Source: an uncultured Bacilli bacterium (lineage in GTDB: Bacteria; Bacillota_I; Bacilli_A; RF39; UBA660). From it: a DNA stretch of 64,000 nt. The stretch spans positions 85,756-149,755 of the forward strand of contig CAKOPK010000001.1 of assembly GCA_934099115.1 (NCBI GenBank). Direction: 5' to 3'. The notes under the pieces were generated by a model that saw only the letters and a list, made by a program, of their open reading frames with translations, did not search any database and was not told the origin of the DNA. Position numbers and translations under genes: made by a program. This document shows, piece by piece, positions 6,095 to 46,191 of the stretch (positions are counted from its first letter, which is position 1; the number at the start of each line of letters is the position of its first letter).

Positions 6095-6556
6095 TTATAA
6101 TTTTTTTGTATTTGTTTTTCCTAAAAGATAGTCTGCACTTATATTATATTTCTTACAAATTGTATATAGAAAAGGAGTTGCTATTATGTTTTTTCCCCTT
6201 TCATACTCTGTTATGGTAGTTCTACTTACATTTAAAATTTTGGCTAATTTTTCTTGGGTTAGTTTATTTTCTTTTCTAAATTCTTTTAATCTAGTGCTAG
6301 ATAAAGCTTTATTTATATCTTCTTTTAGATCTTTATAAGTTAGTTCTTTATTAAATTTAAATATATAATCTATAGATACTTTATAGAAATTACATAAAGT
6401 ATTTAAGTGTTTAATGGGTATTATTCTAGTTTCATTTTCATAATGGCAATATTGAGTGTGATCTATTTTTAAAAGATTTGCTATATATATTTGAGATAGT
6501 TCTTTTTCTTCTCTTAAATATCTAAGTTGTATACCATAATTCATAATTACCACCAA
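6095..6556 (-). CDS. Tandem-HTH XRE-family transcriptional regulator (paralog 1 of 3)
   Basis: Two Cro/C1-type HTH units; C-terminal ~60 aa almost identical to the 7974..8426 and 17205..17657 proteins (…LKEFRKENKLTQEKLAK…YTICKKYNISADYLLGK). Confidence 0.7.
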   Translation of the reverse strand: MVVIMNYGIQLRYLREEKELSQIYIANLLKIDHTQYCHYENETRIIPIKHLNTLCNFYKVSIDYIFKFNKELTYKDLKEDINKALSSTRLKEFRKENKLTQEKLAKILNVSRTTITEYERGKNIIATPFLYTICKKYNISADYLLGKTNTKKL

Positions 6557-7973: not shown

Positions 7974-8426
7974 TTATAATTTCATAGGATTATCTATTTT
8001 TCCCAAAAGATAATCTGCACTTATATTATATTTCTTGCAAATTGTATACAAGTACCCTGTTGATATTAAAGTATTATTTTTTTCATAACTTGATATTACA
8101 GAGTGACTTGTATTTAATAACTTTGCTAGTTTTTCTTGAGTTAGTTTATTTTCTTTTCTAAATTCTTTTAATCTTCTACATGTCTCTTCCCTATCTATTT
8201 CATCTCTTATATTTATATACTTTTTTTCTTTTGATAACTCAAATATATAATCTATTGATACTTGAAAATAGTTACATAGTTTATTTAAATGAGTTAAAGG
8301 AATTATTTTGTCTGCTATTTCATATTGAGAATACAACCCTCTTGAAATTTCTAGCATTTTTGATATTTCACTTTGAGTTAAATTTTTTTCGTTTCTTAAT
8401 CTTTTTAATGTACTTGTATAAAACAT
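7974..8426 (-). CDS. Tandem-HTH XRE-family transcriptional regulator (paralog 2)
   Basis: Same architecture and C-terminus as 6095..6556. Confidence 0.7.
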   Translation of the reverse strand: MFYTSTLKRLRNEKNLTQSEISKMLEISRGLYSQYEIADKIIPLTHLNKLCNYFQVSIDYIFELSKEKKYINIRDEIDREETCRRLKEFRKENKLTQEKLAKLLNTSHSVISSYEKNNTLISTGYLYTICKKYNISADYLLGKIDNPMKL

Positions 8427-14177: not shown

Positions 14178-14474
14178 ATGCATATGGATAAGACTTTAGA
14201 AATAGCAAGTTATGGTAGTCATGAATTAAAAATAATTGACCGTAGAGAAATATCTTTAACTGGTATTAAAAAAATTACTAGTTTTGATAGTGAGGAATTT
14301 TTATTGGAAAGTAATATGGGTATTATTTTGATTAAGGGTAGTAATTTAGAAATTATGAAGTTAGATACTCATGATGGGAATGTTAAAATAAAAGGTAAAA
14401 TTAATGGTTTTAATTATTTAGATAATAAAGAAAAAGTAAAAGAAGAAAGTTTATTATCTAAATTATTTAAATAA
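14178..14474 (+). CDS. yabP: Sporulation protein YabP
   Basis: YabP-family similarity and yabP-yabQ-divIC synteny. Confidence 0.7.
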   Translation: MHMDKTLEIASYGSHELKIIDRREISLTGIKKITSFDSEEFLLESNMGIILIKGSNLEIMKLDTHDGNVKIKGKINGFNYLDNKEKVKEESLLSKLFK

Positions 14475-14475
14475 T

Positions 14476-14790
14476 ATGAATGCTAAAACACAAATAATAG
14501 CTCTTTTACTTTCTTTTTTATACGGATTTATTTTTGCTATTTTAGCTAGAATAAATGCTATAATTGTAAATAAGCAGAAAAGATATTATCGTAGCTTTAT
14601 TACTGTTCTCTTTATATGTAATATTGTTCTTTTATATATTATTCTTATTTTTAAATTAAATCATGGGATATTTCATCCCTATTTCTTTATTATGATGGGA
14701 CTTGGTTATATATTAGGTTTGTATATACAAAAAAAAGTGTCAAATAATAGCAAATATTTGCAATACGTTGAAAGAAAGAAAAAAAAATGA
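14476..14790 (+). CDS. yabQ: Spore cortex biosynthesis membrane protein YabQ
   Basis: Small three-TM protein directly after yabP. Confidence 0.6.
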   Translation: MNAKTQIIALLLSFLYGFIFAILARINAIIVNKQKRYYRSFITVLFICNIVLLYIILIFKLNHGIFHPYFFIMMGLGYILGLYIQKKVSNNSKYLQYVERKKKK

Positions 14791-17204: not shown

Positions 17205-17657
17205 CTATTTTAAATATTTAGGAGATTCTATTTTTCCTAATAAATAGTCTGCACTTATGTTATATTTTTTGCAAATTGTATATAGAAAAGGAGTTGCTAT
17301 ATAGTATCTTCCCCTTTCATAGTCAGTAATTGTAGAATGTGTTGTATTTAAAATATCTGCTAGTTTATTTTGAGTTAATTTTTTTTCTTTACGAAATTCT
17401 TTAAGACGTTTTCCACTTTCTTTTTTGTCTATTTCTGATTTAAAATTATCATATTTTTTGACATCATTAAATTCAAAAACATAATCTAAAGAAATATCTA
17501 AATAATTACATAAAGTATTTAAATGTTTTATTGGTATTATATCTTTTTCTGTTTCATACATACTATATGTAGAATTTTTGACATTAATTATATGCATTAT
17601 ATCTAATTGTTTTATTTCTTTTTCTTCTCTTATATCTCTTAATTTTTTGCTATACAT
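17205..17657 (-). CDS. Tandem-HTH XRE-family transcriptional regulator (paralog 3)
   Basis: Same architecture and C-terminus as the other two. Confidence 0.7.
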   Translation of the reverse strand: MYSKKLRDIREEKEIKQLDIMHIINVKNSTYSMYETEKDIIPIKHLNTLCNYLDISLDYVFEFNDVKKYDNFKSEIDKKESGKRLKEFRKEKKLTQNKLADILNTTHSTITDYERGRYYIATPFLYTICKKYNISADYLLGKIESPKYLK

Positions 17658-17801: not shown

Positions 17802-19853
17802 ATGGAAATAGAAACATTAAAAAGGAAAAATAAATATTTTTATTTAGGAATTATATGTGGGGTTATACTTCTTGCTATAGTGGGATTTAGTACTTCAAGA
17901 GCCAAATATAAAACAACACAAAGTATAAAATTAGCAGAAGGCACTATCACTAATTATAGTACCGCAGATGTAAATGTCGCAGTCTATTGGGGAGACAAAG
18001 CAAAGAGTGCATTTCCAGATAAGAATAGTGGTTATCAATTTGATAAAGTAGTATGTAGTGTAGAAAGTATAGCAAATAAAGCAACATGGTCCAATGAAGC
18101 GTGGTCACTTAATATGGAAGTAACAGAACCAGTTAAATGTTGGATATATTTTACATATACTCCAGAAATGAGTTTATCATTAAGTGGAGATTATACGAAT
18201 AAGACAGTAACAATAACCAATGATTTTAAATCAACCAATTTATATAAAGTAACAAAATATTATTATAGTTTAGATGGAACTAATTATGTAGAAAGTACAA
18301 ATAATAGTTATACATTTACAGAATGGCAAGGAGTAAAGTTAAGTGCATCTAAATATACAATTTATACGAAAGCGGTAGATGAAGAAGGAAATGAAACAAG
18401 TGTAATAACAGGATCTATCTGGTTAGATAATGCAGCCCCAAATTTAATGTTTAATACGGGATCTAATACAGTAGGAAATAATGGATGGTATAAATCATAT
18501 ACGATGAATATAAAAGCAACAGATGAAAATAACATAGGAACTTTCCAATATTGTGTAACAACTAGTACAACATGTACACCAAACATCAATATAAATGCAG
18601 GAACAACAGAAGCAAGTTATAACTATACGTTTGGAACAGCAAGTAGTGGACAAAGAGTATGTGCAACCTCAACAGATATTGTAGGAAACAATACCGGAAT
18701 AAAATGTTCAGAAGCATATAAAGTAGATGTAACAAAACCAACGATATCTAATATGAGTGCGAGTGTAAACAATAAAACAATAAACATATCAGTAAATGCA
18801 ACCGATGTAGGAAGTGGAGGATTAACATACTTCTACAGTATAGATGGAGGAAGAAATTATACATCTAGAACAAGCAACACTTACAGTGTTACAGTAGGAG
18901 CAGGAACCTACAGTATTTATGTATATGTAGTAGACGCAGCAGGGAATCAAAGTGCGGTAAAGACAACGAGTGCAGTGATTAACAATCCATTAAAAGAAAC
19001 AATTCTTGCAAATTCACCGACAATAACAACAAGAACAGATTTTAGTACAACCGTAACAAATACAAATACTGGAACATTATATACAGCGGCAGATGATTAT
19101 GGAACAAGTTATTACTATGCAGGAAATCCAACAGACAACTGGGTAAAATTTGCAGGTTTCTATTGGAGAATCATTCGATTAAATGGAGATGGCACCATCA
19201 GAATGATCTATAATGGAACTACAACAAATCAAACAGGAGAAACAACTCAAATAGGAACAAATTCTTTTAATAGTAGCTATGACAGCAATTTATATGTTGG
19301 TTATCAGTATGCTGATGGTGAAGTCCATGGAAGAGGAACAGATAGTACAATAAAAGGTGTGTTAGATAGTTGGTATAGCAGTAATCTAAGTAGCTATGCA
19401 AGTAAAATAGCAACCGGAAATGGAGCAGCATTCTGCAATGATAGAACTCCATATAATGGACAGGGAATAGGAAGAATTGAAACATATTATGCGGCATATA
19501 ATAGATTAATAACAAATAAAACTCCAACTTTAAAATGTAACAATACCAATGATAACTTTAATGTTTTCGTAGGCTTAATTACGGCTGATGAAGTAGTTTA
19601 CGCTGGTAGCATATATTATCCATTTAATACTGTTTTTTACTTATATACAAATCAAAGTTATTGGACTATATCTCCATCTCATACTGATTGTGATGGATGG
19701 GCAGATGTATTTCACATAGGGGCTAATGGTACACTAAGCACATATGATCGTGTTACCAACACATTTGGTGTTAGACCAGTAATCAACTTAAAATCAGATG
19801 TATCTTTTTCTAGTGGAAATGGAACTTCTTTTGACCCATATGTAGTTTCATAA
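17802..19853 (+). CDS. Secreted/surface protein, paralog 3 (683 aa), with two inserted Ig-like repeats (Y.YS.DG..Y……AGN.S pattern)
   Basis: Same N-terminus, central core and C-terminus as paralogs 1 and 2, plus a ~270-aa insertion of tandem Ig-like modules. Confidence 0.65.
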   Translation: MEIETLKRKNKYFYLGIICGVILLAIVGFSTSRAKYKTTQSIKLAEGTITNYSTADVNVAVYWGDKAKSAFPDKNSGYQFDKVVCSVESIANKATWSNEAWSLNMEVTEPVKCWIYFTYTPEMSLSLSGDYTNKTVTITNDFKSTNLYKVTKYYYSLDGTNYVESTNNSYTFTEWQGVKLSASKYTIYTKAVDEEGNETSVITGSIWLDNAAPNLMFNTGSNTVGNNGWYKSYTMNIKATDENNIGTFQYCVTTSTTCTPNININAGTTEASYNYTFGTASSGQRVCATSTDIVGNNTGIKCSEAYKVDVTKPTISNMSASVNNKTINISVNATDVGSGGLTYFYSIDGGRNYTSRTSNTYSVTVGAGTYSIYVYVVDAAGNQSAVKTTSAVINNPLKETILANSPTITTRTDFSTTVTNTNTGTLYTAADDYGTSYYYAGNPTDNWVKFAGFYWRIIRLNGDGTIRMIYNGTTTNQTGETTQIGTNSFNSSYDSNLYVGYQYADGEVHGRGTDSTIKGVLDSWYSSNLSSYASKIATGNGAAFCNDRTPYNGQGIGRIETYYAAYNRLITNKTPTLKCNNTNDNFNVFVGLITADEVVYAGSIYYPFNTVFYLYTNQSYWTISPSHTDCDGWADVFHIGANGTLSTYDRVTNTFGVRPVINLKSDVSFSSGNGTSFDPYVVS

Positions 19854-19914: not shown

Positions 19915-19936
19915 AATTATTTCCTGGGAAATAATT
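19915..19936. repeat. Palindromic element copy D (AATTATTTCCTGGGAAATAATT) overlapping the mfd stop codon
   Basis: One mismatch to the CCCGGG-core palindrome found in recF, dnaX and the methyltransferase gene. Confidence 0.6.
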
Positions 19937-23147: not shown

Positions 23148-23706
23148 TCATGACTTTTGCAATAGAATTTCTTATAAAACTTTCAATTATTTTATCAAAA
23201 ATTGGATATAAATTAGCAATTGCTTCTCGTTCTTCTTTGTTAAATGTACCTAAAACATAATCTTTTACATCACCTTTTGTATTATGAGATATTCCTACTT
23301 TTAATCTAGCAAAAGCATTTGAATTTAAATGTTCAATAATAGACTTGATACCATTATGGCCTCCAGCACTACTATTTATCTTAATACGATATTTCCCAAC
23401 TGCTAAGTCTAAATCATCTTGAATTACCAAAATGTCTTCGGGAGTAATTTTAAAATATCGGGCATAAGCACCAACGGCATTGCCTGATAAATTCATATAA
23501 GTTTCTGGTTTTATAAAATATACTTTTTCATCATCAATATTAAGAGTTGTACACATGGCATTCATTTTATTTTGCCAAATTACAGACTTATTTTTTAAAT
23601 AATTATCTATTACCATAAATCCTATATTATGACGAGTATTTTCATATTCTTTTCCTGGGTTTCCTAATCCTACTATTAGTTTCATGTTCTTACCTCTTAA
23701 TTCCAT
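23128..23706 (-). CDS. pth: Peptidyl-tRNA hydrolase
   Basis: LIVGLGNPG…NIGF Pth signature. Confidence 0.9.
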   Translation of the reverse strand: MELRGKNMKLIVGLGNPGKEYENTRHNIGFMVIDNYLKNKSVIWQNKMNAMCTTLNIDDEKVYFIKPETYMNLSGNAVGAYARYFKITPEDILVIQDDLDLAVGKYRIKINSSAGGHNGIKSIIEHLNSNAFARLKVGISHNTKGDVKDYVLGTFNKEEREAIANLYPIFDKIIESFIRNSIAKVMNDYNHK

Positions 23707-24404
23707 ATGTTTTGATATGTTTTTGTTTCTCTATTTATTATTTTATGATCCACTTTCATTCCTATACGGGCATTTTTAACACATTTTATTAAAACCATTA
23801 TTGCAGGTTCTTCTTCTTTGGAAGAAATAAATGTCATCTTTTTTATTCTTAAATTATTTTTGGAGCATAAGGTTATAATTTCTTCTAGTCGTTCTGGGCG
23901 ATGGACTAGATAAAACTCACCATTATTCTTTAATAGATAAGATGCTATTTCTATTAATTCTTTCAATGTAATGGTTATTTCATGTCTTGCTATCGCTTTT
24001 TCATAATTTTCATTTTTTAATGAACTATCCTGTTTAAAAAACGGTGGATTGCAGGTTATTATGTCAAAATTATTTCCCGGGAAATAATTTTTAGCATTTT
24101 TGGCCGTATCATTAATCATTGTTATTTTATTTCCCAAGCCATTTTCTGCAATACTTTTAACTGCTAGATCATAAATTGATTTTTGAATTTCTATTCCAGT
24201 TATTTGTATTTCTGTTTTATTTGCAATAATCATAGGCAATGGTGCATTTCCTGTACATAAGTCCAATAATGTTTTTTTATTTTTGGTTTCTATGTATTCT
24301 GCTAGTAAAAGAGAATCCAAAGAGAACTTGAATTTCTCATTATCTTGATAAATAATTAAACCATAGTCATATAAATCATTTTTTACTGTCATCATTATCT
24401 CCAA
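23697..24404 (-). CDS. SAM-dependent N6-adenine methyltransferase (YabB/TrmN6-like), carrying palindromic element copy A in frame
   Basis: NPPF motif (ITCNPPFF); the palindrome at 24066-24091 encodes NYFPGNN just before it. Confidence 0.7.
   Translation of the reverse strand: MEIMMTVKNDLYDYGLIIYQDNEKFKFSLDSLLLAEYIETKNKKTLLDLCTGNAPLPMIIANKTEIQITGIEIQKSIYDLAVKSIAENGLGNKITMINDTAKNAKNYFPGNNFDIITCNPPFFKQDSSLKNENYEKAIARHEITITLKELIEIASYLLKNNGEFYLVHRPERLEEIITLCSKNNLRIKKMTFISSKEEEPAIMVLIKCVKNARIGMKVDHKIINRETKTYQNIWN
24066..24091. repeat. Palindromic element copy A (AAAATTATTTCCCGGGAAATAATTTT, perfect 26-bp palindrome) inside the methyltransferase CDS
   Basis: Exact match to the other copies; translated in frame as NYFPGNN. 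Confidence 0.65.
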
Positions 24405-27161: not shown

Positions 27162-28733
27162 CTAATTTATTTCTATTTTATCTTTATCAAATAGATTTAA
27201 AGCGATATCTTCCATAGAAGTGCTTTCTTTTGGTTCCTCTTGTTTTTCTACAGGTTCTTCTATATATTCATACTTATAATTGTTTTTTAAGTTTGTTATA
27301 TAAATTTGTTTTTCTTTTTGCCATTCACTATCACTAATGGCAATAAAATTATAATTAGTATTTGAATAAATGTCGTAATATTTTTTTAATTTATCAAGAT
27401 TGTTGTTAATAAGTGCTACCGTTCCTTCTAAAGAGCTGGATATTATAGCAAGTTTATCACTTGCAACCACTAAGTTACTATCTATTAGAAGATTTAAAAG
27501 GGTTTTATCCTCTAGAGTTTCTAAGAAACTGTCCCATGTATCTCGAACTTTTTGGAGATATTCTTTTTTTGCATTTACAAAACAATTATTAACTCTGATT
27601 CTTTTTAATTCGTTTGTTTTATCTTGAAAAATTGTTGATTTTGGTTGGGAAATTATTTCCCGGGAAATAATTTTAGACTCTTTTGCAGTGTTTATCATTG
27701 AATTTTCTTCTTTTTGAAAATATTTTAAAAGAGTTATTTCTATTAGTAAATAGGGGTCTATATTAATATTAATGTAATTTGAAATGCTAGATAAACTAAA
27801 AGCCATTTCTTTTAAATCTTTATAAGGCAGTCCTTTATAATTTCTGCCCTTTACTTCTGCAATTGCTTCCGCTTCAATTTTTTCTAGCATTTTTTTAATC
27901 AATAATTTATAATCAATTGCTAACTCTTTAAATTTATTTATTGTTGTGATAAATTTATCTATTTCGCCATTTACTATATATTCGAATAAATCATTAATTT
28001 GTTTTTTAGATACTGACCCAAAGTGACTCATAACATCTTCAAGAGTTACTTTAGTAGTATTCCCAGATAATTGATCTAAAATACTCAGTGCATCACGCAT
28101 TCCACCATCGCTGATGTAAGCTATTTCTTCTAGAGCATCTTTATCTATATCTATTTTTTCTTGTTCTACTACATAATTTAGCCTTTTTATAATATCTATA
28201 GTGCTTATTTTATGAAAATCAAAACGCTGACATCTTGATAAGATAGTTATAGGAACAGCTTCAATATTAGTTGTAGCAAGAATAAATACTACATGTTTTG
28301 GAGGTTCCTCTAAGGTTAATAACAAGGCATTAAAAGCACTTGTACTTAACATATGAACTTCGTCAATTATATATACCTTATATTTTGAGTAAGCTGGAGC
28401 AAGCTTAATATTATTAATTATTTCACGAATTTCATCTACACCATTATTAGATGCTGCATCAATCTCAATAATATCTGCATTTTCTTTAAAATGAATACAA
28501 CTTTCGCATTCATTACACGGCCCCTTTTCTGTTGGATGCATACAGTTTATTGCTTTTGCAAAAACTTTGGCAGTACTTGTTTTTCCTGTTCCTCTTGGAC
28601 CCGAAAAGATATACGCATGAGATATATGGTCTTTTTGTATAGAATTTTTTAAAATGGATACCATGTAATCTTGGCCAATTATATTGGAAAAATTATCTGG
28701 TCTATATTTTCTATAAAGTACTTTGTAATCCAT
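27162..28733 (-). CDS. dnaX: DNA polymerase III subunit gamma/tau; contains palindromic element copy B in frame (IISREII)
   Basis: Walker A GPRGTGKTS, zinc-binding C..C..C module, clamp-loader domains. Confidence 0.95.
   Translation of the reverse strand: MDYKVLYRKYRPDNFSNIIGQDYMVSILKNSIQKDHISHAYIFSGPRGTGKTSTAKVFAKAINCMHPTEKGPCNECESCIHFKENADIIEIDAASNNGVDEIREIINNIKLAPAYSKYKVYIIDEVHMLSTSAFNALLLTLEEPPKHVVFILATTNIEAVPITILSRCQRFDFHKISTIDIIKRLNYVVEQEKIDIDKDALEEIAYISDGGMRDALSILDQLSGNTTKVTLEDVMSHFGSVSKKQINDLFEYIVNGEIDKFITTINKFKELAIDYKLLIKKMLEKIEAEAIAEVKGRNYKGLPYKDLKEMAFSLSSISNYININIDPYLLIEITLLKYFQKEENSMINTAKESKIISREIISQPKSTIFQDKTNELKRIRVNNCFVNAKKEYLQKVRDTWDSFLETLEDKTLLNLLIDSNLVVASDKLAIISSSLEGTVALINNNLDKLKKYYDIYSNTNYNFIAISDSEWQKEKQIYITNLKNNYKYEYIEEPVEKQEEPKESTSMEDIALNLFDKDKIEIN
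27651..27672. repeat. Palindromic element copy B (AATTATTTCCCGGGAAATAATT) inside dnaX
   Basis: Exact match; translated in frame as IISREII. Confidence 0.65.
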
Positions 28734-29189: not shown

Positions 29190-29200
29190 ATTCCTCCATA

Positions 29201-29277
29201 AAAAAAGTGCACACAAATAGGGATTGATGTGGCTGCTATCTTCCGATTCTGACCAGGTTACAATATATTTGTTGCAC
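29201..29277 (-). ncRNA. ffs: Signal recognition particle RNA (short 4.5S-type)
   Basis: Domain IV motif ACCUGGUCAGAAUCGGAAGAUAGCAGCC (compare E. coli ACCAGGUCAGGUCCGGAAGGAAGCAGCC); 5' GUGCAACAAAUA pairs with 3' UAUUUGUGUGCAC; ends in a U-run; promoter-like TTGCTA…TGgTAAATT upstream. Confidence 0.65.
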
Positions 29278-29333
29278 ATATATAATTTACCACATTTTTA
29301 AGTATTTAGCAAGTATAAAATGATATAGATTTA

Positions 29334-30172
29334 CTATGTTTCACGTGAAACATAGTATTTTTTATTTGATATATATAACTTTTGCAAGTTTATAATCAAA
29401 TGTGTGATTATTTTAGTTATAAATCCTTTTGTTTTTAAACTATAGCACAATGTTTCACGTGAAACATTGTGGATAAGTGCAGATGGATTAATTATTTTTT
29501 TGTTTTTTAACTTTATTTTTCGTTTAAATTAGCTTAGTGTTTCTTTTTATTAATTTTTAATATAATTTTTCTAACAATGTTTCACGTGAAACATTGTTAG
29601 TAATTTTAAATTTTATATTTATAAAAGTTTTATTTATAAAAAAAAACATTATAACTACAGTATTTAGCATAAATTTTGTTTATCGATTATGTTTTTTTAA
29701 TTTAATTTATAAAATTGCGTTAATTCAATGTGCAAAATAGCTTTTATTAGCTTTAAACAAGATTTTAATATTGTTTCAGTTAAATAAATTTATGATTTTC
29801 ATTTATATTTATATAACAATGTTTCACGTGAAACATTGTTAGTAATCTTAAATTCTATTTTAATAAAAACTTTAGTTATTCAAAAAACAATATAACTGCA
29901 GTATTTAGCATATTTTTTGTTTATCGATTATACTTTTTAATTTAATTTATTAATTCAATGTACTAAAACAGTTTTTATTAGTTTTTAACAAGATTTTAAT
30001 ATTCTTTCAGTTAAATAAATTTATGATTTTCATTTATGTTTATATAGCAATGTTTCACGTGAAACATTGTGAATAACTTTTAATTAATTACAATTTTTTT
30101 TATTACTTCATTTAATTTATTTGTAATTTTAAAGTTTAGTAGGGGAATTATATGTTTCACGTGAAACATATA
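29334..30172. other. Array of six perfect parS sites (TGTTTCACGTGAAACA) at 29337, 29451, 29578, 29820, 30051 and 30153
   Basis: Each is a 16-bp palindrome matching the Spo0J/ParB consensus tGTTNCACGTGAAACa; some extend to 22-30 bp perfect palindromes. Confidence 0.75.
29560..30070. repeat. ~235-bp tandem direct repeat (about 2.2 units), each unit carrying a parS palindrome
   Basis: 29571-29810 aligns with 29812-30045 at roughly 85-90% identity; AT-rich. Confidence 0.7.
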
Positions 30173-30252
30173 TTAATTTTCTTGCTATTTTTGAGTTATC
30201 CACATTCTTTTTTATAATTAAAATAAATAAAATTTAGTAAAAAAAAGAATGC

Positions 30253-32691
30253 TTATTCAGCATTACTTTCTTCTTCTGGTTCATCTTCTTGTTTTTCAAC
30301 TAAGCTTATAGTTGAAACATATTGATTATCCTTTAAATGAATTAATCTTACGCCTTGAGTTACTCTACCTAAAGTATTAATTTGTTCTAGAGACATTCTC
30401 ATTGTGATACCAGTATTTGTCATTATAACTAGTTCCTTATCTTCGTCTACTACTTTAACACTTGCAATATTACCATTTTTGTCTGTTATATTCAAGGCTT
30501 TAACACCTTTGCTACCGCGGCTTGTCTCTCTAAATTCACTTACTAAAGTCTTTTTACCATATCCTTTTTCAGTTACTAACAATATTTTGTCATCTTCTGT
30601 TACTACTTCAGCACAAACACATTTACCGCCATCTAAATTGATACCTTTAACACCACTGGCTGTACGTCCCATTGCTCGGATATTGCTTTCTTTAAACTTA
30701 ACCATACGTCCTAAATCGCTACCTAACAACACTTCATTTTCACCGGTAGTTTTTTTAACACTTATTAATTCATCATTTGGTTTTAAGCTTATAGCAATCT
30801 TCCCAGACGTACGTATGTTTGCAAATTCGCTAATTTGGGTTTTCTTTACTAAGCCTGATTTTGTAACGAATAATAAATATTTAGCTTCTTCTTTTGGATT
30901 TACACATATCATTGAGCTTACCCATTCATCTTTTTCAATTGGAAGAAGATTAATTATTGGTAATCCTTTTGATTGACGATTAAATTCTGGAATTTCGTAT
31001 CCTTTTAAGCGATATACTTTTCCTTTATTTGTAAAGAAGAATAAGTAATCGTGGCTAGAAAGATTGATAATTTGATTTACAAAGTCTTCTTCATTTGTAG
31101 TCATTCCTTTTATGCCCATTCCACCACGTTTTTGAGCTTTAAAAGTATCACTACTAGTTCTTTTAATATATCCCTTGTTAGTTAAAGCAATTAAGATATT
31201 CTCTTCTGGAATTAAAGATTCATCTTCAATATACTCTATTGCTGTCATATCAATATCTGTACGACGTTTATCGCCATATTTTTCTTTAATTTCTAGTAAT
31301 TCTTCTTTAATAATATTTAATATTTTTTCTTCAGAAGCAAGAATTGACCTTAATTCTTCTATAAGTGCTAATAATTCGTTCAATTCAGCCTCAATTTTGT
31401 CTCTTTCTAATCCGGTTAATCTTCTTAGCTTCATTTCGAGAATTGCTTCTGATTGAGCCTCAGAAAGGCCAAATTGAGTCATTAAACCATTTTTTGCTTC
31501 TTCATCTGATTTTGAACCACGAATTAATTTAATTACTGCATCAATATGGTCTAATGCTATTTTTAACCCTTCTAAAATGTGTACTCTTTTTTCAGCTTTT
31601 TCTAAATCAAATTTAGTTCTTCTTACGATTATTTCTTTTTGGTAATCAATATATTTAGAAATAATATCTTTTAAGCCTAAAGTTTTTGGTACACCATTAT
31701 CTAACATTAAGAAGATAATTCCATATGTAGTTTGAAAAGCAGTATGCTTATATAATTTATTTAAAATTACTTGAGCATTTGCATCCTTTTTAAGCGTTAT
31801 AGTAATTTTTACGCCTTCTTTTAAGTCTACATGATAGTCTGTAATACCTTCTAAAACTTTATTATGAACTAAATCTGCTACTTTATTTTTTAATTCTAAA
31901 GTATTTATTCCATAAGGAACTTCATCAATAATGATATATTCACGACCGTTTTTTTCTTCTATACGAGCTCTAGAACGAATAGTAATACTTCCACGTCCTG
32001 TTTCGTAAGCCTTCTTTATTCCACTATTTCCAAGAATAACAGCTCCTGTAGGGAAATCTGGACCTTTAATATACTGCATTAATCCTGTAGTATCTATATC
32101 TGGATTGTCGATATAGGCTACGCATCCATCAATTACTTCTCCTAAATTGTGAGGAGGAATATTAGTTGCCATACCAACGGCAATACCTGTTGTTCCATTT
32201 ACTAAGATATTAGGGAATCTTGATGGTAAAACGGTTGGTTCACTCTCAGATTCATCAAAGTTTGGTGTAAAATCTACTGTGTTTTTACGAATATCTCTTA
32301 ATAATTCTAAAGAAATCTTAGATAAACGAGATTCAGTATAACGCATGGCAGCGGCGCCATATCCTTCAATATTACCAAAGTTTCCATGACCATCCACTAG
32401 CATATAACGATAGCTAAAATCTTGAGCCATACGAACCATAGCTTCATAAATACTAGAATCTCCATGTGGGTGATATTTTCCCATTACGTCTCCGACGATA
32501 CGAGCACTTTTTTTATGAGGCTTATCGGGAGTATATCCAGACTCAAACATTGAATATAATATACGACGATGAACTGGTTTTAAACCATCTCGTAAATCTG
32601 GTAGGGCACGTGCTACAATAACACTCATGGAATATTCTAAGAATGAATCTTGTATTTCTTTTACTATGTTATTTTTTTCTAATCTATCCAT
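30253..32691 (-). CDS. gyrA: DNA gyrase subunit A
   Basis: AAMRYTE active-site Tyr motif, QRDR, C-terminal beta-pinwheel repeats. Confidence 0.97.
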
Positions 32692-32701
32692 TATTTACCT
32701 C

Positions 32702-35705
<3,004 letters not shown>

Positions 35706-35794: not shown

Positions 35795-36247
35795 TTAAAG
35801 GTGTTTTTGTTTGTTATAGCCTTTTAAAGCATATTCTAATCTGGTAGCTCGTGCTATTTGTTTATCAAAAATATTATAACTAATTTCTAAGACTACTTTT
35901 TTGCTATTTTTTAGTTCTACAATGGTCTTTTTTTGATTATTTTCATAATAGGTTACTATAGTATGAAAATTTAACCATGCACATTTCTTATTACGAATAG
36001 AATGCGTTGGGATTAAAATGATATTTTTATAACCATTTATAAGTATTGGAGGTTTGTATGATGTTCCTATTAAATAAGCACTTCCTTTTTGACGGCCTAA
36101 AAAAGAGGAACCATTCATGTAGCAATTTCTATCAACGATGCTTGGTGTTGCTTCATTAACAATAAAAGATTTGTATTCTTCAATAATTTTAGTACCTTTA
36201 CTATTTGGAAGTAATGCAAACGTTTCTTCTCCAATTAAATACGGCAT
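35795..36247 (-). CDS. comK: ComK-family competence transcription factor homolog
   Basis: Collinear with B. subtilis ComK (…FALLPNSKG…IVDRNCYMNGSSFLGRQKGSAYLIGTSYKPPILI…LIPTHSIRNKKCAWLNFH…ISYNIFDKQIARA…); start assigned to the second ATG, after GGAAGGGGG. Confidence 0.65.
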   Translation of the reverse strand: MPYLIGEETFALLPNSKGTKIIEEYKSFIVNEATPSIVDRNCYMNGSSFLGRQKGSAYLIGTSYKPPILINGYKNIILIPTHSIRNKKCAWLNFHTIVTYYENNQKKTIVELKNSKKVVLEISYNIFDKQIARATRLEYALKGYNKQKHL

Positions 36248-36330
36248 TTTTTTGCCCCCTTCCTGTAAAATGATTTTAATATAGCATAAAGAGGGCATAT
36301 TGTTTGTCGAATTGTGGAATAAATTTCATT

Positions 36331-37449: not shown

Positions 37450-37593
37450 TTTCTTTCCTTCTTTCTATTTTTAATAGTTATTATAATACTGTTGATAATG
37501 TTTATAACTTTGTTTTATCCCTTATTTAGGGAGAATTTTTTGTTTTTAGTTGTTTATAAGTGTTTGTTTATTCACAATTTTTTATTATTTTAT

Positions 37594-38940
37594 CTACAAT
37601 TTTGATTTTATTTCTTTGATATTCCTTTCTAATTCTTTATTCGTTAGCAGTTCTTTTTCAATTTTATCACACGCAAATATGACTGTTGAATGGTCTCGGC
37701 CTCCAAATTCTAGGCCTATTCTTGGGAATGTTTCATCTGTTTCGATTCTACAGAGATACATTGCTAATTGACGTGGATGAGCTACTTTATTGCTTCTTTT
37801 TTTGCCTTTTAAGTCTTCAATTGTAATTTTATAATGGTCGGCAACTGCCTTTTGAATCTTTGTAATATTATTATTTGAATATATGTTTTTATTAACGAAA
37901 TCTTTTAGGGCTTCGCAAGTAAATTCTAGGTCTATTGTTTTAGGTACTATCATTGCGGTGTATGCCATAAGACGGTTGATTGCACCTTCTAGGAATCTTA
38001 CGTCATTTTGACAAGCATTTGCAATATATTCAATGCTTTCTTCTTTCATTAGTCCTGCGATACTCGAATTTTCGATTTTTTTCCTTATAATTCGACATCT
38101 TAAATCGAAATCAGGAGGATAAATATCGACTGGTAGACCCCACATAAATCTTGAACGTAAACGTTCTTCTAAGATTTTTAAGTCATCTGGAGAACGGTCG
38201 GAACTTATAATTATCTGTTTATTAGATTGGTGCAGATAATTAAATGTGTTAAAGAATTCTTGTTGGGTTTTTTCAGCACCTACTAAATATTGGATATCAT
38301 CTATTATTAAGACGTCTACATTACGGTATTTATTTTTAAATTCTGTAGCATATTCCAGGGTGTTTTTGCCATTATCAGGATTTGCTATATTGGTATATTC
38401 TGTCATAAACTCATCGCAAGTACAGTATAAGACTTTCCGGTTAGAATTTTCTGTTATAAAGTTACCAATAGCGTGCATTAAATGGGTTTTTCCTAATCCG
38501 CTTTTACCATATATAAATAAGGGATTATGAATTCTTCCAGGAGCTTCTGCTACTGCCATAGCAGCTACTTTAGCTAAACGGTTGGTGTCTCCAACTACGA
38601 ATGTATCGAAGTTTAGGTTGGGATTTAGGTTTGTTTTAAAGTTATTGTTGATAACATCTTCTTTATCCACAACTGGTTTGGGAAGTGTATCCAATTCACT
38701 TTCTAAAACAAAGTTTATATCATAATTTATATTTGTAATCTGATAAAGTGTTTTTTCAATTAAAGAGTAGTAGTTATCGCCTAACATTTTTTTATGTATT
38801 TCCATGGGAACTTCAAAAGTTATTTTATTCTCTGTTAGAGAGATTATTTTTAAATCATTGAACCATGCATGGAATGATGCTGGATTTATTTCTTTATATA
38901 TATTGTCTAAAAAACTTTTCAGTAATTCTTGATTACTCAA
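37594..38940 (-). CDS. dnaA: Chromosomal replication initiator protein DnaA
   Basis: AAA+ Walker A GKSGLGKTHL and C-terminal DnaA-box binding domain. Confidence 0.97.
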   Translation of the reverse strand: MSNQELLKSFLDNIYKEINPASFHAWFNDLKIISLTENKITFEVPMEIHKKMLGDNYYSLIEKTLYQITNINYDINFVLESELDTLPKPVVDKEDVINNNFKTNLNPNLNFDTFVVGDTNRLAKVAAMAVAEAPGRIHNPLFIYGKSGLGKTHLMHAIGNFITENSNRKVLYCTCDEFMTEYTNIANPDNGKNTLEYATEFKNKYRNVDVLIIDDIQYLVGAEKTQQEFFNTFNYLHQSNKQIIISSDRSPDDLKILEERLRSRFMWGLPVDIYPPDFDLRCRIIRKKIENSSIAGLMKEESIEYIANACQNDVRFLEGAINRLMAYTAMIVPKTIDLEFTCEALKDFVNKNIYSNNNITKIQKAVADHYKITIEDLKGKKRSNKVAHPRQLAMYLCRIETDETFPRIGLEFGGRDHSTVIFACDKIEKELLTNKELERNIKEIKSKL

Positions 38941-39472
38941 ATAACCTCACCCCACAGTCTAGTAACTTGTAACTACTTAATTGTATCGCATTTTTATTTT
39001 AATTTAAAGTATAAAATTTAAAATGTTAATTATTCACAACTTATCAACAGAAGTTATCCCATATAATATCTTAAAAGAATGAATTTATCAACACTATTCA
39101 CAAATTTTTATTAAAAAAATTTTTTATTAACTTCTGAGTATTTTTAGCTAAATTGTTGATAGTGTGGATAACTTTTAAAAAACAGCTTGTTTGCTTAGGT
39201 TTTATCTGTGTTTTATTAATTTATATATTTTGTTAGTAAGTAGATATTTATTAACAATTATTGGGAAATATCCTGTTTATAATTTATTTAACTATTTTTT
39301 CTTTTAAAGTTGGATTGTGAATAATTTGAGGATAACTTTTAAATTTTTTTGTTTAGTCTTAAAAAAAGTAAAATTTCTAGTAGTTTTTGTGTTTGTTGCT
39401 TAAAAAACTTGACTTCATTGTGTAAAAATATTATAATTAAACCACTTGAAAAAATTTTAAGGAGGTGAAGAT
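38941..39472. other. oriC: oriC region with a DnaA-box cluster between dnaA and rpmH
   Basis: Perfect TGTGGATAA at 39163-39171; near-consensus boxes at 39030, 39041, 39085 and 39316; AT-rich; a further TTATTCACA near 37568 between dnaA and dnaN suggests a bipartite origin. Confidence 0.75.
39409..39437 (+). promoter_or_regulatory. Consensus sigma-A promoter (TTGACT-17-TATAAT) for rpmH-rnpA
   Basis: TTGACT at 39409-39414, TATAAT at 39432-39437. Confidence 0.55.
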
Positions 39473-41605: not shown

Positions 41606-42322
41606 TTATGTTTCAATAAACATAAATCTATCTAAATTATTAAAGTCTTTTTCTACTATTATGTTAGACTCTGGATAATAGTTAAGAACTATATTTTTTA
41701 TATCATTTGCAATTGTTGCACCTATCTCAAAAATAATAATACCTTTTTTATTTAATATATTTTTAGCTTCTTTTATAATTGCTTCATAAAATTCTAAACC
41801 ATTATTATTTGCAAACAATGCTATTTGAGGCTCATATTTTGTTTCTAATGAGGTATATTCGTCTTTTTTAACATAGGGTGGATTACTTACTATTAAATCA
41901 TATTTCTCTTTTATATGGTCATTTAAAACATCAATTTTAAAGAATTTAATATTTGCATTATTTTCTTTTGCATTTTCTTTTGCTAATGTAAGAGCAGGAT
42001 TTGAGATATCACAAGCATCGAAGCTTATATTTAGTTCTTTATTTAAAGTAATAGCAATACATCCACTTCCAGTACAAATATCTATTGCTTTTTTAATAAC
42101 TTTCTTTTTTAGATATTTTATACTTTTATCTATTAATAGTTCTGTTTCAAATCTTGGTATTAAAACATTTTCGTTTACTTTAATTTTATAATTATAAAAG
42201 TCTACATATCCAATTAAATATTGTATTGGGTAATTTTTTTTTAAAAGTTTATAGGCTTCTTTTAAATCGCCTTTATAAGTTTCTTTTAAAAGTGTTAAAT
42301 CTGCGATACCAATATTATTCAA
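41606..42322 (-). CDS. prmC: Release factor glutamine methyltransferase
   Basis: NPPY motif (SNPPYV); overlaps the prfA 3' end. Confidence 0.85.
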   Translation of the reverse strand: MNNIGIADLTLLKETYKGDLKEAYKLLKKNYPIQYLIGYVDFYNYKIKVNENVLIPRFETELLIDKSIKYLKKKVIKKAIDICTGSGCIAITLNKELNISFDACDISNPALTLAKENAKENNANIKFFKIDVLNDHIKEKYDLIVSNPPYVKKDEYTSLETKYEPQIALFANNNGLEFYEAIIKEAKNILNKKGIIIFEIGATIANDIKNIVLNYYPESNIIVEKDFNNLDRFMFIET

Positions 42323-43379
42323 AAGTTTCTCCTGCTAGTTTAAGTCTTAAATCTTCTGTTTGTAAAGCTTCAATAATTGGTTCTAATTCACCATCCATTA
42401 CACGGTCTAGGCTCATAATTGAAAAATTAATTCGATGGTCTGTTACACGGTTTTGAGGATAGTTATAAGTTCTAATCTTTTCACTACGGTCTCCAGTTCC
42501 TATTTTACTTTTTCTAGCGGCACCTAATTTCTTTTCTTCTTCATTGCGCATTTCATCATTTATTTTGATTTTTAGCATTTCCATAGCACGCTCTCTATTT
42601 TTTAATTGGCTTCTTTCAATTTGACAAGTTACTACAGCTCCTGTTGGAATATGAGTTAATCTTACAGCTGAATTAGAAGTATTTACAGATTGACCACCGG
42701 CTCCACTTGAGTGGTATACGTCCATTTTTATATCTGCTTCTTTTAATACAATATTAGAAGTTACTATTTCTGGCATTACTAATACTGTTGCGGTTGAAGT
42801 ATGAACTCTTCCTTGAGTTTCTGTTACTGGTACTCTTTGGACTCTATGACTACCACTTTCATATTTTAACTTTTTATATACATCTTCGCCTTTTATCATA
42901 ATTTCTACTTGAGAATAGCCACCACTGGTACCTTCAATAGAGTGTAATTCTTCTATTTTCCAGCCATTTTTTTCTGCATAATAGGTATACATTCTGTATA
43001 AGTCACCAGCAAAAATATTTGCTTCATCTCCACCGGCAGCACCACGTATTTCCATGATAACATTCTTGCCATCATTTTCATCCTTTGGTACAAGTAATAT
43101 TTCTAATTCTTTAGTAATTGTTTCTAATTTTTCTTTGTTTGTTTCTAATTCTAGGGTTGCTAAGTCTTTTAGTTCTTCATCTTTTAGTAAAGCTTTTGCT
43201 TCTTCAATTGCTTTGATTGTTTCTTTATATTCTTCGTATTTTTTTACGGTTTCTTCTAAATCACTGGATTCTTTGGATAATGTTTTTAATTTATTATAGT
43301 CACTAATGATTTCAGGATTTGTTAATTCTTTTTGTAATTCGTTGTATTTTTCTAAAATTGTTTCTAATCTTTCAATCAT
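42315..43379 (-). CDS. prfA: Peptide chain release factor 1
   Basis: GGQ motif (SGAGGQSVN) and PxT-type decoding region. Confidence 0.95.
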   Translation of the reverse strand: MIERLETILEKYNELQKELTNPEIISDYNKLKTLSKESSDLEETVKKYEEYKETIKAIEEAKALLKDEELKDLATLELETNKEKLETITKELEILLVPKDENDGKNVIMEIRGAAGGDEANIFAGDLYRMYTYYAEKNGWKIEELHSIEGTSGGYSQVEIMIKGEDVYKKLKYESGSHRVQRVPVTETQGRVHTSTATVLVMPEIVTSNIVLKEADIKMDVYHSSGAGGQSVNTSNSAVRLTHIPTGAVVTCQIERSQLKNRERAMEMLKIKINDEMRNEEEKKLGAARKSKIGTGDRSEKIRTYNYPQNRVTDHRINFSIMSLDRVMDGELEPIIEALQTEDLRLKLAGETFE

Positions 43380-43433
43380 AATTTGTTTCCTTTCTAATCA
43401 ATATTATAACAAAAATCTAGAAAAAAACAAACA

Positions 43434-43877
43434 TTAACTGTTTGCTTCTTCTTCGTCCATATCAATTACTACTAAATCATCTAAATCGTCATCTGGAATG
43501 TCATCGTCGTTATCATTTTCATAAAAGATATCTTCTTCTTGTTCTTCTTCTAATTCTGTAGGTTCATCATCTACTTCAGCGATAACCATTTCATCCTCGT
43601 CTTCATCAACGATTACTTTTGGATTGTGATGTTCTCTTAAGTCCCAGGAACCATCTTCTAACATAATAAATCTTTTGTCTGTTGTTAATAATTCAAAGAA
43701 ATCTGCTATTTTTGCTTCATATTCTTGTTCACTTAGTTCTAAGGCATTACAAACTTTTTTGAAAAGAATGTTTATTTTCATTTGTTTCTTTTCTTCATTT
43801 AAGATTGCAAAGGCAATATCATCATAATTCATTGCTTCTAATTCTTCTTTTGGTATATCACTTAATTTCATATTCAT
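43434..43877 (-). CDS. rpoE: DNA-directed RNA polymerase delta subunit
   Basis: N-terminal HARE-HTH-like domain plus a long acidic C-terminal tail (DEDEDEM…DDDDIPDDDLDD). Confidence 0.7.
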   Translation of the reverse strand: MNMKLSDIPKEELEAMNYDDIAFAILNEEKKQMKINILFKKVCNALELSEQEYEAKIADFFELLTTDKRFIMLEDGSWDLREHHNPKVIVDEDEDEMVIAEVDDEPTELEEEQEEDIFYENDNDDDIPDDDLDDLVVIDMDEEEANS

Positions 43878-43988
43878 AATCTCCTTTTGTTAGTGTCAAG
43901 ACATTATATGATAGTTTTTGATTTTTGTGTAGTCCATTTCTAACTTTTGTAATTGTAATATTAAAAACTATATTTGTCAATTCTTAAT

Positions 43989-45740
43989 TTACATTTTTTC
44001 GGGAATATTTATACCTAGAATGTTTAATAAATATAAATTGTTATTATAAATAATATTTGTGAGTGTTAACCATGATGTTTTTAAGTCTTTATTTTGCTCT
44101 GTTAGTACTTTATTTTCGGCATAAAAATTATTGTATAGATTGGTTGTTTTATATAAATATTCTGCGATTTCATTTAAAGAATAATTTTCATAACTTCTTT
44201 TAATAATTCTTTTTAAGTCTAGCATTGATAGGATTATTTTTCTTTCTGAGGCTCCTATTTTTGTTATTTCTTTAAATTCTATATTCTGTTCTTGGGCTTT
44301 TTTAAGTAAAGATTTCATTCTTAATGTAGAATATAGAAGATATGTTCCTGTTTTACCATTTAAGTCTGTAAATTTTTCAATGTCAAAATTATAATCGGTT
44401 GCTCTATATGGTAATAAGTCTGCATATTTAATTGCTCCGATAGCTATAGTTCTGGCAATTTGTTTTCTATTTTCGGTAATACTTTCATTTAATCTTTTTT
44501 CACATTCTTCTGTTACCATATCTAATAAATCGGATAAGGGCATAACTCCTCCATCTCTGGTTTTAAATGGTTTTCCATCTGGTCCATTCATTGTTCCAAA
44601 GCCGCTCCATATTAACTTTAACTCTGGTTTTATCATTTCACTTTTATAAGCTGCACGAAATACTTGAGTAAAGTGCAATTCTTGACGTTTATCTGTTAAA
44701 TACCATATTTCATCAATATTAAATTTTTTTGTTCTTTCCCATATGGCTGCTAGGTCAGTTGTCTCGTAAGAAACAGCTTTATTACTTTTAATTAATATTA
44801 ATGGAGGCATTTCTAATTTATCACTATCTTCTTTAACAGGGATAACTTTTGCTCCTTCACTTTCTACAATTATGTTTTTACCATATAAATATTCCATCAT
44901 TTCATCAATATAGAAAGAATTATCACTTTCTCCTTCCCATAAGTCAAAATCTACATTTAAGTCTTTATATAGTCTTTTTACTTCTTTTAAACTAACTTCT
45001 ACAATTTTTTTCCATAAAGAATAATAACCAATTTGTTTATTTTGAAGTTCATAATTAATTTTACGAGCATTTTCCATAATTTCAGCGTTTTCTTTGGCTT
45101 TGGTAGTAGCAATGGGATACAACTCTAATAAGTCTTCATTTGTAATATTAAATTCTACTTCTTCACCATTATAATCTGGTTTGAAGTATGCTAAATCGGG
45201 ATATCTATTTTTAATTTCCAGTATAACCATTCCCATTGGTCTTCCCCAATCACCTAAATGGACATCAGCGATGGTTTTACAGCCTACTTTTTGACATAAT
45301 CTTTTTAGAGCTTCACCAATATTTGCACTTCTTAAATGGCCTACATGTAAAACTTTTGCTACGTTTGGGCCACCATAATCTAAGAAAATGGTCTTATTTA
45401 TTCCTAAATTATAATTAATGGTGATGTCTTTATTGCTTTCATTCATAAAGTCAATTAAAAAAGTATCACTAAATGTTAAGTTTATAAAACCAGGACCTGC
45501 GACAGATACATCTTTTAACTCTTCATATTCTTTTAATTTAGTAACTAATTCATTTGCTATTAAGACAGGATTTTTGTGATAATTTTTAGCTAGAGGCATT
45601 ATTCCGTTATATTGATAATCTCCTAAATCTGGTCTATTTGAGGGGTTTAAAGTTACGTTTTCTACTTCATAGTCTAGTTCTTTTAGACTATTTTTTATTT
45701 TATTTTCTAATTCTAATATTTTATATTTCATTTTGTTCAC
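43989..45740 (-). CDS. argS: Arginine--tRNA ligase
   Basis: Class I HIGH (HVGH) and the DALR anticodon-binding domain. Confidence 0.95.
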   Translation of the reverse strand: MNKMKYKILELENKIKNSLKELDYEVENVTLNPSNRPDLGDYQYNGIMPLAKNYHKNPVLIANELVTKLKEYEELKDVSVAGPGFINLTFSDTFLIDFMNESNKDITINYNLGINKTIFLDYGGPNVAKVLHVGHLRSANIGEALKRLCQKVGCKTIADVHLGDWGRPMGMVILEIKNRYPDLAYFKPDYNGEEVEFNITNEDLLELYPIATTKAKENAEIMENARKINYELQNKQIGYYSLWKKIVEVSLKEVKRLYKDLNVDFDLWEGESDNSFYIDEMMEYLYGKNIIVESEGAKVIPVKEDSDKLEMPPLILIKSNKAVSYETTDLAAIWERTKKFNIDEIWYLTDKRQELHFTQVFRAAYKSEMIKPELKLIWSGFGTMNGPDGKPFKTRDGGVMPLSDLLDMVTEECEKRLNESITENRKQIARTIAIGAIKYADLLPYRATDYNFDIEKFTDLNGKTGTYLLYSTLRMKSLLKKAQEQNIEFKEITKIGASERKIILSMLDLKRIIKRSYENYSLNEIAEYLYKTTNLYNNFYAENKVLTEQNKDLKTSWLTLTNIIYNNNLYLLNILGINIPEKM

Positions 45741-46074
45741 TTCCTATTTCTAATTCAATTTTTAAAGGATTTTCTTGGCTTATTAATTTATATTCAATTA
45801 ATATTTTATTATTAGCATCTATATAGTTTATATACTCTATGGGGATATTTACATTTTGATTTACTTCTTTTAAAGTTAAAACACATTCTTGGAGATTTAT
45901 TTTAAATATTGTTTCTAAGTTTTCTTTTATAAAGTTAAAGTTTTGCCGGTTAATCCTTATATTATCATTATCTGTATGAAATGTTAGAAAGTTATCTTCT
46001 ATTTTACATGTAGTTATATTTTTAAATAATAAATCATCAGATTCGTAAGTACTTACTGTCAGATTATAGTTCAT
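45721..46074 (-). CDS. Small hypothetical protein upstream of argS (possibly DUF1934/YwiB-like)
   Basis: Position relative to argS as for ywiB in Bacillus; sequence support weak. Confidence 0.4.
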   Translation of the reverse strand: MNYNLTVSTYESDDLLFKNITTCKIEDNFLTFHTDNDNIRINRQNFNFIKENLETIFKINLQECVLTLKEVNQNVNIPIEYINYIDANNKILIEYKLISQENPLKIELEIGSEQNEI

Positions 46075-46191
46075 AGTAATCCCTCATTTATTAGTTTTAT
46101 TATACTAAATAACTTTTAGAAATACAACTTAAATAAAAAAATGGCTATAATTAATTTATTTTGTTTCATATTAATAAAAGGGTGAGATAGT

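Follow-up and report, generated by a model that had tools for sequence, protein, structure and literature searches.

Six parS sites in the spacer between gyrA and the SRP RNA gene of an uncultured gut Bacilli bacterium: a probable origin-proximal centromere

What function is performed by a short intergenic spacer that carries six exact copies of one palindrome? The question is raised by a 64-kb stretch of contig CAKOPK010000001.1 (hereafter the window, meaning the whole stretch of DNA that was analyzed), which belongs to an uncultured Bacilli bacterium with a G+C content of about 27%. The spacer between the gene gyrA and the gene of the small RNA of the signal recognition particle (SRP) contains six copies of TGTTTCACGTGAAACA, the 16-bp palindrome parS, located by a scan of the window within 832 bp (29337–30168) at irregular intervals of 102–242 bp. 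The number of sites expected by chance is 0, 100 shuffles of the window gave 0, and beyond these six no match to parS with up to two mismatches is present anywhere in the 64 kb. The statement in a preliminary description of this DNA that it contains six perfect parS sites matching the Spo0J/ParB consensus is borne out by this count. Judging from the sequence, the spacer is most probably an origin-proximal centromere, in the form of a compact six-site array for the loading of ParB of the Spo0J type.

Both flanks of the array named in the preliminary description were found in place, the SRP RNA gene by a match to Rfam and gyrA by analysis of open reading frames (ORFs). The minus strand carries, in this order, dnaA, dnaN, a ComK-family gene, recF, gyrB, gyrA, the array, the SRP RNA gene, tadA, dnaX, ybaB, recR and holB, and continues onward to mfd; the genes rnpA, yidC and jag are located on the plus strand from 39.6 kb. 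Clusters of three and six DnaA boxes, situated in the dnaA–dnaN spacer (37490–37598) and upstream of dnaA (39030–39335), respectively, mark the usual bipartite oriC around dnaA, and the array is accordingly located 7–10 kb from the origin. An inverted repeat of 16 bp matching TGTTNCACGTGAAACA and an origin-proximal location, both expected of a centromere, are thus found together. A role in ParB nucleation or condensin loading, proposed earlier, is the best reading of these sites, which are genuine parS motifs, far exceed chance and lie next to oriC.

The locus was scanned in related species, represented by one genome each, which gave 80 loci with GyrA proteins 72–93% identical; parS in relatives was counted at up to one mismatch. 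The homologues of GyrA originate from metagenome-assembled genomes (MAGs) of uncultured ‘Bacilli bacterium’, including Candidatus Caccenecus, Candidatus Coprovivens and ‘Mycoplasma sp. CAG:877’. Sites per locus were counted where 1.5 kb or more of sequence past gyrA was available, which was the case for 59 species-level loci (fetched loci, the window and one nearby species). Directly past gyrA, at least two parS sites were found in 54 loci, at least three in 47 and at least five in 29, with a median of 4 and a maximum of 11 sites per locus and a median array span of 570 bp. The comparison of the gyrA-adjacent region with relatives, suggested in the preliminary description, hence revealed a multi-parS array at the same place in 54 of 59 loci. 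Two nearby species contain three and four parS sites in the equivalent spacer, and species of the window’s own clade (GyrA 84–93% identical) carry 3–6 sites each with no more than one mismatch, differing in number and spacing; the position of parS-6 is kept in several species of this clade (offsets +83 to +94). The order gyrA, array, SRP RNA gene was the same in all six relatives tested, with the last site 50–110 bp before the SRP RNA gene. Flanks of roughly 10 kb contain no other parS with up to one mismatch, except for one site inside the end of gyrA in the locus L088.

Sites conserved against diverged flanks, which are a further mark of a centromere, are thus represented by the 54 of 59 species that keep two or more at one locus. 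The retention of a similar array at the same spot in relatives indicates a real, selected centromere array. The array is a feature of the whole lineage of uncultured low-GC gut Bacilli, and the comparison shows strong selection on the sites, the origin-proximal location of which is constant while their number turns over.

Several loci depart from the common pattern. No parS was found in the 10 kb past gyrA in L026 and L086, and L091 contains, besides the main array, three parS-like sites spaced by 45 bp about 2 kb downstream of gyrA (14441–14546). Contigs with gyrA of this lineage and a parS array are also filed under MAGs of a Methanobacteriaceae archaeon, Muribaculaceae and Roseburia (L023, L047, L052 and L087), where they are probably binning contaminants.

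The turnover of sites is visible in the repeat structure of the arrays. As described previously, three of the six copies in the window are part of a tandem repeat, the unit of which is 231 bp long according to Tandem Repeats Finder (TRF), compared with the earlier estimate of about 235 bp; this supports an origin of part of the window array through tandem duplication. Tandem repeats were detectable in 24 of 66 arrays, with periods of 36–400 bp and one to five sites per unit, for example, 7.2 copies of 37 bp in L037 and 7.8 copies of 64 bp in L065. In the other arrays the spacers are without detectable repetition and the sites persist. Site density ranges from one per 36 bp to one per 290 bp; L023 contains 11 sites about 53 bp apart. 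These data show that turnover proceeds largely via tandem duplication of site-bearing units, after which the spacers decay and the sites do not.

A tandem repeat of 231 bp inside the array could also have been produced by erroneous duplication during assembly, which the preliminary description named as grounds for discarding the array, and the contigs of many relatives’ MAGs break just past gyrA. About 20 of the 80 contigs end less than 700 nt past this gene, often inside the array (among them L031, L032, L035, L037, L039, L042, L049, L050, L057–L059, L062, L064, L066 and L068), apparently because the repeats break short-read assemblies. The exact GyrA protein of the window is, however, encoded on contigs of several independent human-gut metagenome assemblies, and four such contigs span the spacer with all six perfect sites, the same spacing and 99% identity to the window; the few single nucleotide polymorphisms and short insertions or deletions among the four are located in the spacers. 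The presence of the six-site structure in four independent assemblies from different samples and the recurrence of arrays at this locus in 54 of 59 related species (about 90%) make an assembly artefact next to impossible.

The arrays provided 329 parS sites, of which 206 match perfectly. Most of the variation falls on positions 5 (T in 275, C in 53) and 12 (A in 300, G in 28), which correspond to the degenerate N of the B. subtilis consensus TGTTNCACGTGAAACA. In 93% of sites the core is flanked by the pair A...T, giving an 18-bp palindrome; the second and third flanking positions show a weaker preference, and more than 3 bp away from the core on either side complementarity is no higher than background (about 0.35). 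In the window, each site is enclosed in a perfect palindrome of 22–30 bp, the flanks of which differ between copies yet are complementary, and three sites were flagged as terminator-like by a scan, as might be expected if the palindromes of this spacer functioned as hairpins in RNA or DNA (terminators, attenuators or cruciforms). Such a function is very improbable, given that cross-species complementarity is lost beyond 3 bp from the core and that the core keeps its sequence instead of co-varying. Only one of the flagged hairpins, moreover, is on the transcribed minus strand, and it lacks a T run, while gyrA has its own short hairpin followed by T8 at the stop codon (read by eye). The palindromes of the window are longer than the norm of the lineage, and no conserved hairpin is therefore indicated.

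When parS was masked, an unbiased search of the arrays for enriched 9-mers gave two accessory signals, the DnaA box and, unexpectedly, the Noc-binding site (NBS). The DnaA boxes reported earlier beside parS in the window are present, two of them perfect and one near-perfect, the latter starting at 30068 rather than 30069. The whole window contains four perfect DnaA boxes, two of which are in the array. The box TTATCCACA was found in the arrays of 24 of 66 species, compared with 0.4 expected from shuffles, and the density of perfect boxes in relatives’ arrays is about 5-fold higher than in the remaining locus (0.65 versus 0.13 per kb). The composite of TTATCCACA, A and parS was seen 15 times and recurs in related species; in the window it occurs at 29451–29476 and, with one mismatch, at 30051–30076. 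Every species examined in the window’s clade has at least one array box with no more than one mismatch, which is perfect in all species but one. A perfect box is absent from the arrays of 42 of 66 species, and 29 lack even a box with one mismatch. Since DnaA boxes are missing from many arrays, they are accessory, and parS is the constant component.

It could be supposed from the density of boxes, from their recurrence in 24 species and throughout the window’s clade, and from the location of half of the window’s perfect boxes in the array that the locus is an extra module of the replication origin or a cluster of boxes titrating DnaA, in which the parS sites are incidental. This is highly unlikely: the array offers two perfect boxes and one near-perfect box over 740 bp, compared with the canonical clusters of three and six boxes flanking dnaA; most relatives’ arrays lack perfect boxes; and no initiator gene adjoins the array. 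On the same evidence of boxes (no search aimed at an unwinding element was made), the array was rejected as an oriC module, for which a dense cluster of boxes next to dnaA or dnaN and an unwinding element would be expected, and the earlier suggestion of a third origin module is not upheld. Clusters of DnaA boxes outside oriC are present in B. subtilis. Similarly to these, a few consensus boxes are found here in an origin-proximal intergenic region away from dnaA; in contrast to them, the boxes are fewer, fused to parS at a fixed spacing, and occur in approximately one third of the species.

The second signal, TTTCCCGGGAAA, was found in the arrays of 32 of 66 species, compared with 0 expected. 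It is the core of the 16-bp NBS TATTTCCCGGGAAATA described in the Noc papers. The density of NBS is 1.61 per kb inside the arrays and 0.063 per kb outside, a 25-fold difference, and in 25 of 59 species the parS arrays contain NBS. The tandem unit of L038, L085, L065, L063, L030, L031, L062 and L035 comprises one parS and one NBS, which gives a strict 1:1 alternation; its length is, for example, 125 bp in L038 (12474–13180) and 75 bp in L085 (12560–13230). The window’s own array contains no NBS, and the DNA flanking it contains four, one of them with a single mismatch and the others perfect, compared with 0.03 expected. The positions of these sites and of the other features are given in Table 1.

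Table 1. Location of the parS sites, accessory sites and neighboring genes in the window.
Feature	Position	Strand	Remarks
parS-1	29337–29352		Perfect 16-bp palindrome within a 26-bp perfect palindrome; about 50 bp upstream of the SRP RNA 5' end
parS-2	29451–29466		Perfect; within a 26-bp palindrome; abuts a perfect DnaA box
parS-3	29578–29593		Perfect; within a 30-bp palindrome; unit 1 of the tandem repeat
parS-4	29820–29835		Perfect; within a 28-bp palindrome; unit 2 of the tandem repeat
parS-5	30051–30066		Perfect; partial third repeat unit; abuts a near-perfect DnaA box
parS-6	30153–30168		Perfect; 85 bp past the gyrA stop codon
Tandem repeat	29565–30070		TRF: 231-bp unit, 2.1 copies, 86% matches; holds parS-3, parS-4 and parS-5
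DnaA box TTATCCACA	29468–29476	-	Perfect; forms the composite TTATCCACAATGTTTCACG with parS-2
DnaA box TTATTCACA	30068–30076	-	One mismatch; spacing to parS equal to that of the box at 29468
DnaA box TTATCCACA	30196–30204	+	Perfect; between parS-6 and the end of gyrA
NBS	19918–19933		Single mismatch
NBS TATTTCCCGGGAAATA	24071–24086		Perfect; inside a methyltransferase gene (23697–24404)
NBS TATTTCCCGGGAAATA	27654–27669		Perfect; inside dnaX
NBS TATTTCCCGGGAAATA	34965–34980		Perfect; inside recF; offset kept across the clade
Small SRP RNA gene	29190–29288	-	Rfam, 60 bits; bounds the array opposite gyrA
gyrA	30253–32691	-	The array starts directly past its 3' end
Canonical oriC region	37490–39335		DnaA-box clusters on both sides of dnaA
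dnaA	37594–38940	-	Flanked by DnaA-box clusters

Genes of the proteins that could bind these sites were sought in the window and in relatives. Queries for Spo0J, Soj and Noc of B. subtilis were used for detection only; classification was based on Pfam, NCBIfam and published specificity residues. The order of genes around the origin in many relatives is dnaA / rpmH-rnpA-yidC-jag-mnmE-mnmG-rsmG-X / PBP1A, where X is a gene of the ParB family. The protein X, a ParB paralogue of 326–569 aa with a conserved GERRYKA box, is closer to Noc than to Spo0J: it scores 270–298 bits against NCBIfam TIGR04285, the cut-off of which is 315, while Spo0J-type paralogues score 227–246. Its specificity positions are occupied by Q, K, N/S and R; the corresponding residues are RTAG in ParB and QKKR in Noc (PMC7383237). 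The presence of Q, K and R at these positions predicts binding to NBS and not to parS. The membrane-targeting N-terminal amphipathic helix defines Noc according to the Noc papers, and in-frame stops just upstream of the ATG of X leave no room for such a helix. X also contains a long low-complexity linker and a short conserved C-terminal domain (L098:6001–7017, L145:10001–10981, L126:9944–11653, L071:1194–2666). The ParB query taken from L071 is itself the Noc-like paralogue, and the loci retrieved with it are mostly Noc-like. Many relatives have this Noc-like gene as the sole gene of the ParB family near the origin, with no soj beside it, and in the low-GC metagenome loci L106–L159 the 10 kb on either side of this gene are free of parS. 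In the relative L126, uvrB is located directly after the noc-like gene.

Genes of the Spo0J type are also represented among the loci found. L145 combines the comK-dnaN-dnaA synteny of the lineage with rsmG, a noc-like gene, soj and a gene of the spo0J type, the product of which has R at 173 and S at 201 and is of the parS type by the rules of PMC7383237. L121 contains soj and spo0J beside rnpA, L134 contains noc, soj and spo0J, and MAGs of ‘Bacilli bacterium’ frequently encode Spo0J-type homologues with 69% identity or more. There was no overlap between the ParB or Noc loci and the GyrA loci with an identity of 85% or higher.

Several observations weigh against a centromere loaded by ParB of the Spo0J type. 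No ParA or ParB domains were detected by Pfam in any ORF of the window of at least 80 aa, and tblastn with Spo0J, Soj, Noc and the lineage’s Noc-like protein gave no hit in the window. No parB, soj or noc was found in the approximately 8 kb past its left end, as represented by contigs encoding the window’s UvrB, and no Spo0J-type ParB among the homologues found could be tied to this species or its close relatives. In the window’s clade (GyrA at least 84% identical), mnmE-mnmG-rsmG-noc is gone from the place after jag. In addition, one parS is usually enough for model species (review), and the benefit of having six is consequently not explained by established knowledge.

The absence of parAB from the usual place after jag was noted in the preliminary description and is seen in the window, where prmC and prfA are found instead, on the opposite strand. 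The origin region is rearranged here (41606–48147): the prmC-prfA-...-PBP1A block after jag is inverted relative to the order in relatives.

With no ParB-family gene in the 64 kb around the origin, a rearranged locus after jag and a rsmG-adjacent gene that is Noc-like rather than Spo0J-like in many relatives, the clade might have lost its Spo0J-type ParB, leaving the palindromes to be bound by another protein or to decay as relics. We consider this very unlikely. Relics would decay, and none of the six sites deviates from the motif; other members of the clade keep 3–6 sites with no more than one mismatch despite varying number and spacing. The residues of the Noc-like protein predict recognition of NBS and not of parS, and the persistence of perfect NBS in the window argues that the ParB/Noc machinery is intact.

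The function of the array as a centromere can be pictured on the basis of established ParB biology, from which loading, sliding, spreading and recruitment of SMC are taken. At each parS, ParB dimers would attach, take up CTP and close into clamps, which would then slide along the adjoining DNA, towards gyrBA-recF-dnaN-dnaA-oriC in one direction and towards the SRP RNA gene, dnaX and recR in the other. Six gates in 832 bp would provide a high loading flux and give one dense partition complex 7–10 kb from oriC, which would recruit SMC-ScpAB and, where present, Soj/ParA. Tandem duplication would supply the sites, and selection would keep the 18-bp cores while the spacers drift.

ParB bound at the array could instead act mainly as a transcriptional operator for SRP RNA-tadA-dnaX-recR or for read-through from gyrA, with segregation being secondary. 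In the window and all six relatives tested, the last parS precedes the SRP RNA 5' end by 50–110 bp, parS-1 is just upstream of a plausible −35/−10 pair (read by eye), and ParB is known to affect nearby promoters in P. aeruginosa and S. pneumoniae (review). However, one site would suffice for an operator, site number and spacing vary freely between species, unlike the architecture of promoters, and loss of Spo0J in B. subtilis leaves the expression of parS-adjacent genes unchanged (review). The probability of a mainly regulatory function is accordingly small; an operator role is possible as a side effect, and it would leave the multiplicity of sites without explanation.

The DnaA boxes of the array and the NBS in the arrays of relatives suggest that the locus may plausibly serve as a shared landing pad for DNA-binding proteins of the origin region. 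A further, tentative proposal, which we hold to be somewhat less than an even chance, is a ‘regional centromere’ throughout this lineage of small-genome gut Bacilli: a fast-evolving tandem array in which parS would be co-amplified, often in strict alternation, with sites for an anchor-less Noc-like paralogue, accompanied by DnaA boxes, so that two different CTP-dependent clamps would be loaded next to each other and act together on the origin region.

Comparison with known systems shows which properties of the array are familiar. The Spo0J–parS system of B. subtilis has the identical 16-bp motif, in which T/C at position 5 and A/G at position 12 are likewise tolerated, is also origin-proximal and, by analogy, presumably shares ParB loading and SMC recruitment. 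The parS sites of B. subtilis are scattered singly over hundreds of kb, one of them inside spo0J. The window differs in that six sites are collected in one 0.9-kb intergenic spacer and parAB is not beside the origin, and the relatives examined differ in the absence of parS near the noc-like gene. The total number of parS sites in B. subtilis is 10 (review).

Several parS sites near oriC are likewise present in Caulobacter, Corynebacterium glutamicum, P. aeruginosa (parS1–4), Streptomyces and Listeria innocua. The clusters of these bacteria range in extent from several to hundreds of kb and involve many genes, the sites lying mostly inside or between them. The array described here is, in contrast, dense, often tandem and located in one syntenic gyrA–SRP RNA spacer throughout the lineage. 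The centromere sopC of the F plasmid consists of 12 × 43 bp tandem repeats. It shares with the arrays of relatives the head-to-tail units with one site each; the periods (36–84 bp) and copy numbers (5–11) in relatives are very similar to those of plasmid centromeres. The window array differs from sopC in being chromosomal, in lacking an adjoining parAB operon and in its motif, which is that of chromosomal parS.

S. pneumoniae and S. aureus, in which ParB is present without ParA (reviews, including PMC7333895), are similar as members of Bacillota with few origin-proximal parS and no soj by parB, and in many relatives of the window organism the only ParB-family gene near the origin likewise has no soj beside it. 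They are different in that this gene of the relatives is Noc-like and that L145, L121 and L134 carry soj and spo0J. The Noc–NBS system of B. subtilis is comparable in the exact NBS, found three times without mismatch in the window and also in relatives’ arrays, and in the Noc-type residues. It differs in the distribution of NBS, which are scattered round the chromosome in B. subtilis (Noc paper) and stand 1:1 with parS in several relatives, and in the protein, which in relatives is below the NCBIfam cut-off for Noc and has no room for the membrane helix.

The earlier view of the six-site cluster as plasmid-like or exceptional in itself does not stand, as chromosomes often carry clustered parS in the vicinity of oriC; in most species the number of sites exceeds one, and it can reach 20–23 (reviews, including PMC7333895). 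A plasmid-type centromere was rejected: head-to-tail one-site units are partial in the window (three of six sites) and full in L065 and L037, no par genes are nearby, and the locus is chromosomal and syntenic across 80 related loci. A blastn comparison of the array with plasmid and phage records found no DNA similarity. The array was also rejected as one of clustered regularly interspaced short palindromic repeats (CRISPR), as the spacing in the window is irregular and the spacers of the regular arrays in relatives are mutual copies (85–99% unit identity); no cas domains were found by Pfam in window ORFs of at least 80 aa. In the searchable literature we found no description of a gyrA-adjacent chromosomal parS array, of a dense, often tandem one fixed at one spacer throughout a lineage, of the interleaving of parS with NBS, or of a composite of DnaA box and parS. 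The occurrence of several parS near oriC is known; the array described here is of an unusually compact kind.

Other genes of the window are mentioned here as separate observations. The ComK-family gene (35795–36298, minus strand) is located between dnaN and recF, and its position is kept lineage-wide (L001–L011, L071 and probably L145). Genes of sporulation are represented by spo0A, yabG, spoVG, yabP and spoIID. The block containing uvrB (1–19.9 kb) has a positive GC skew, points to the origin and meets mfd head-on at approximately 19.9 kb. The minus strand encodes three paralogues of about 150 aa, each with a pair of HTH_3 domains (6095–6556, 7974–8426 and 17205–17657) and each adjoining a divergently transcribed protein without a Pfam match (6690–7937, 8573–9832 and 17802–19853), which looks like a repeated cassette of a regulator plus a protein without assignment. 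An agr-like quorum-sensing locus, consisting of a LytTR response regulator, a GHKL histidine kinase and AgrB, is located at 55301–58156.

The arrays apparently account for the ending of many MAG contigs of this group just past gyrA. Of wider significance is the question, asked in a review, of why the number of parS sites varies even though one suffices, and what drives their clustering (PMC7333895). The lineage represents a natural experiment on parS number, with one syntenic locus, dozens of species and from 0 to 11 sites, in which expansion by tandem duplication is visible and the sites are kept while the spacers decay. The alternation of parS with NBS and the fixed composite of DnaA box and parS point to direct coupling between segregation, the Noc-like paralogue and the initiator, and a regional centromere with two clamps, if true, would be an architecture without a described counterpart.

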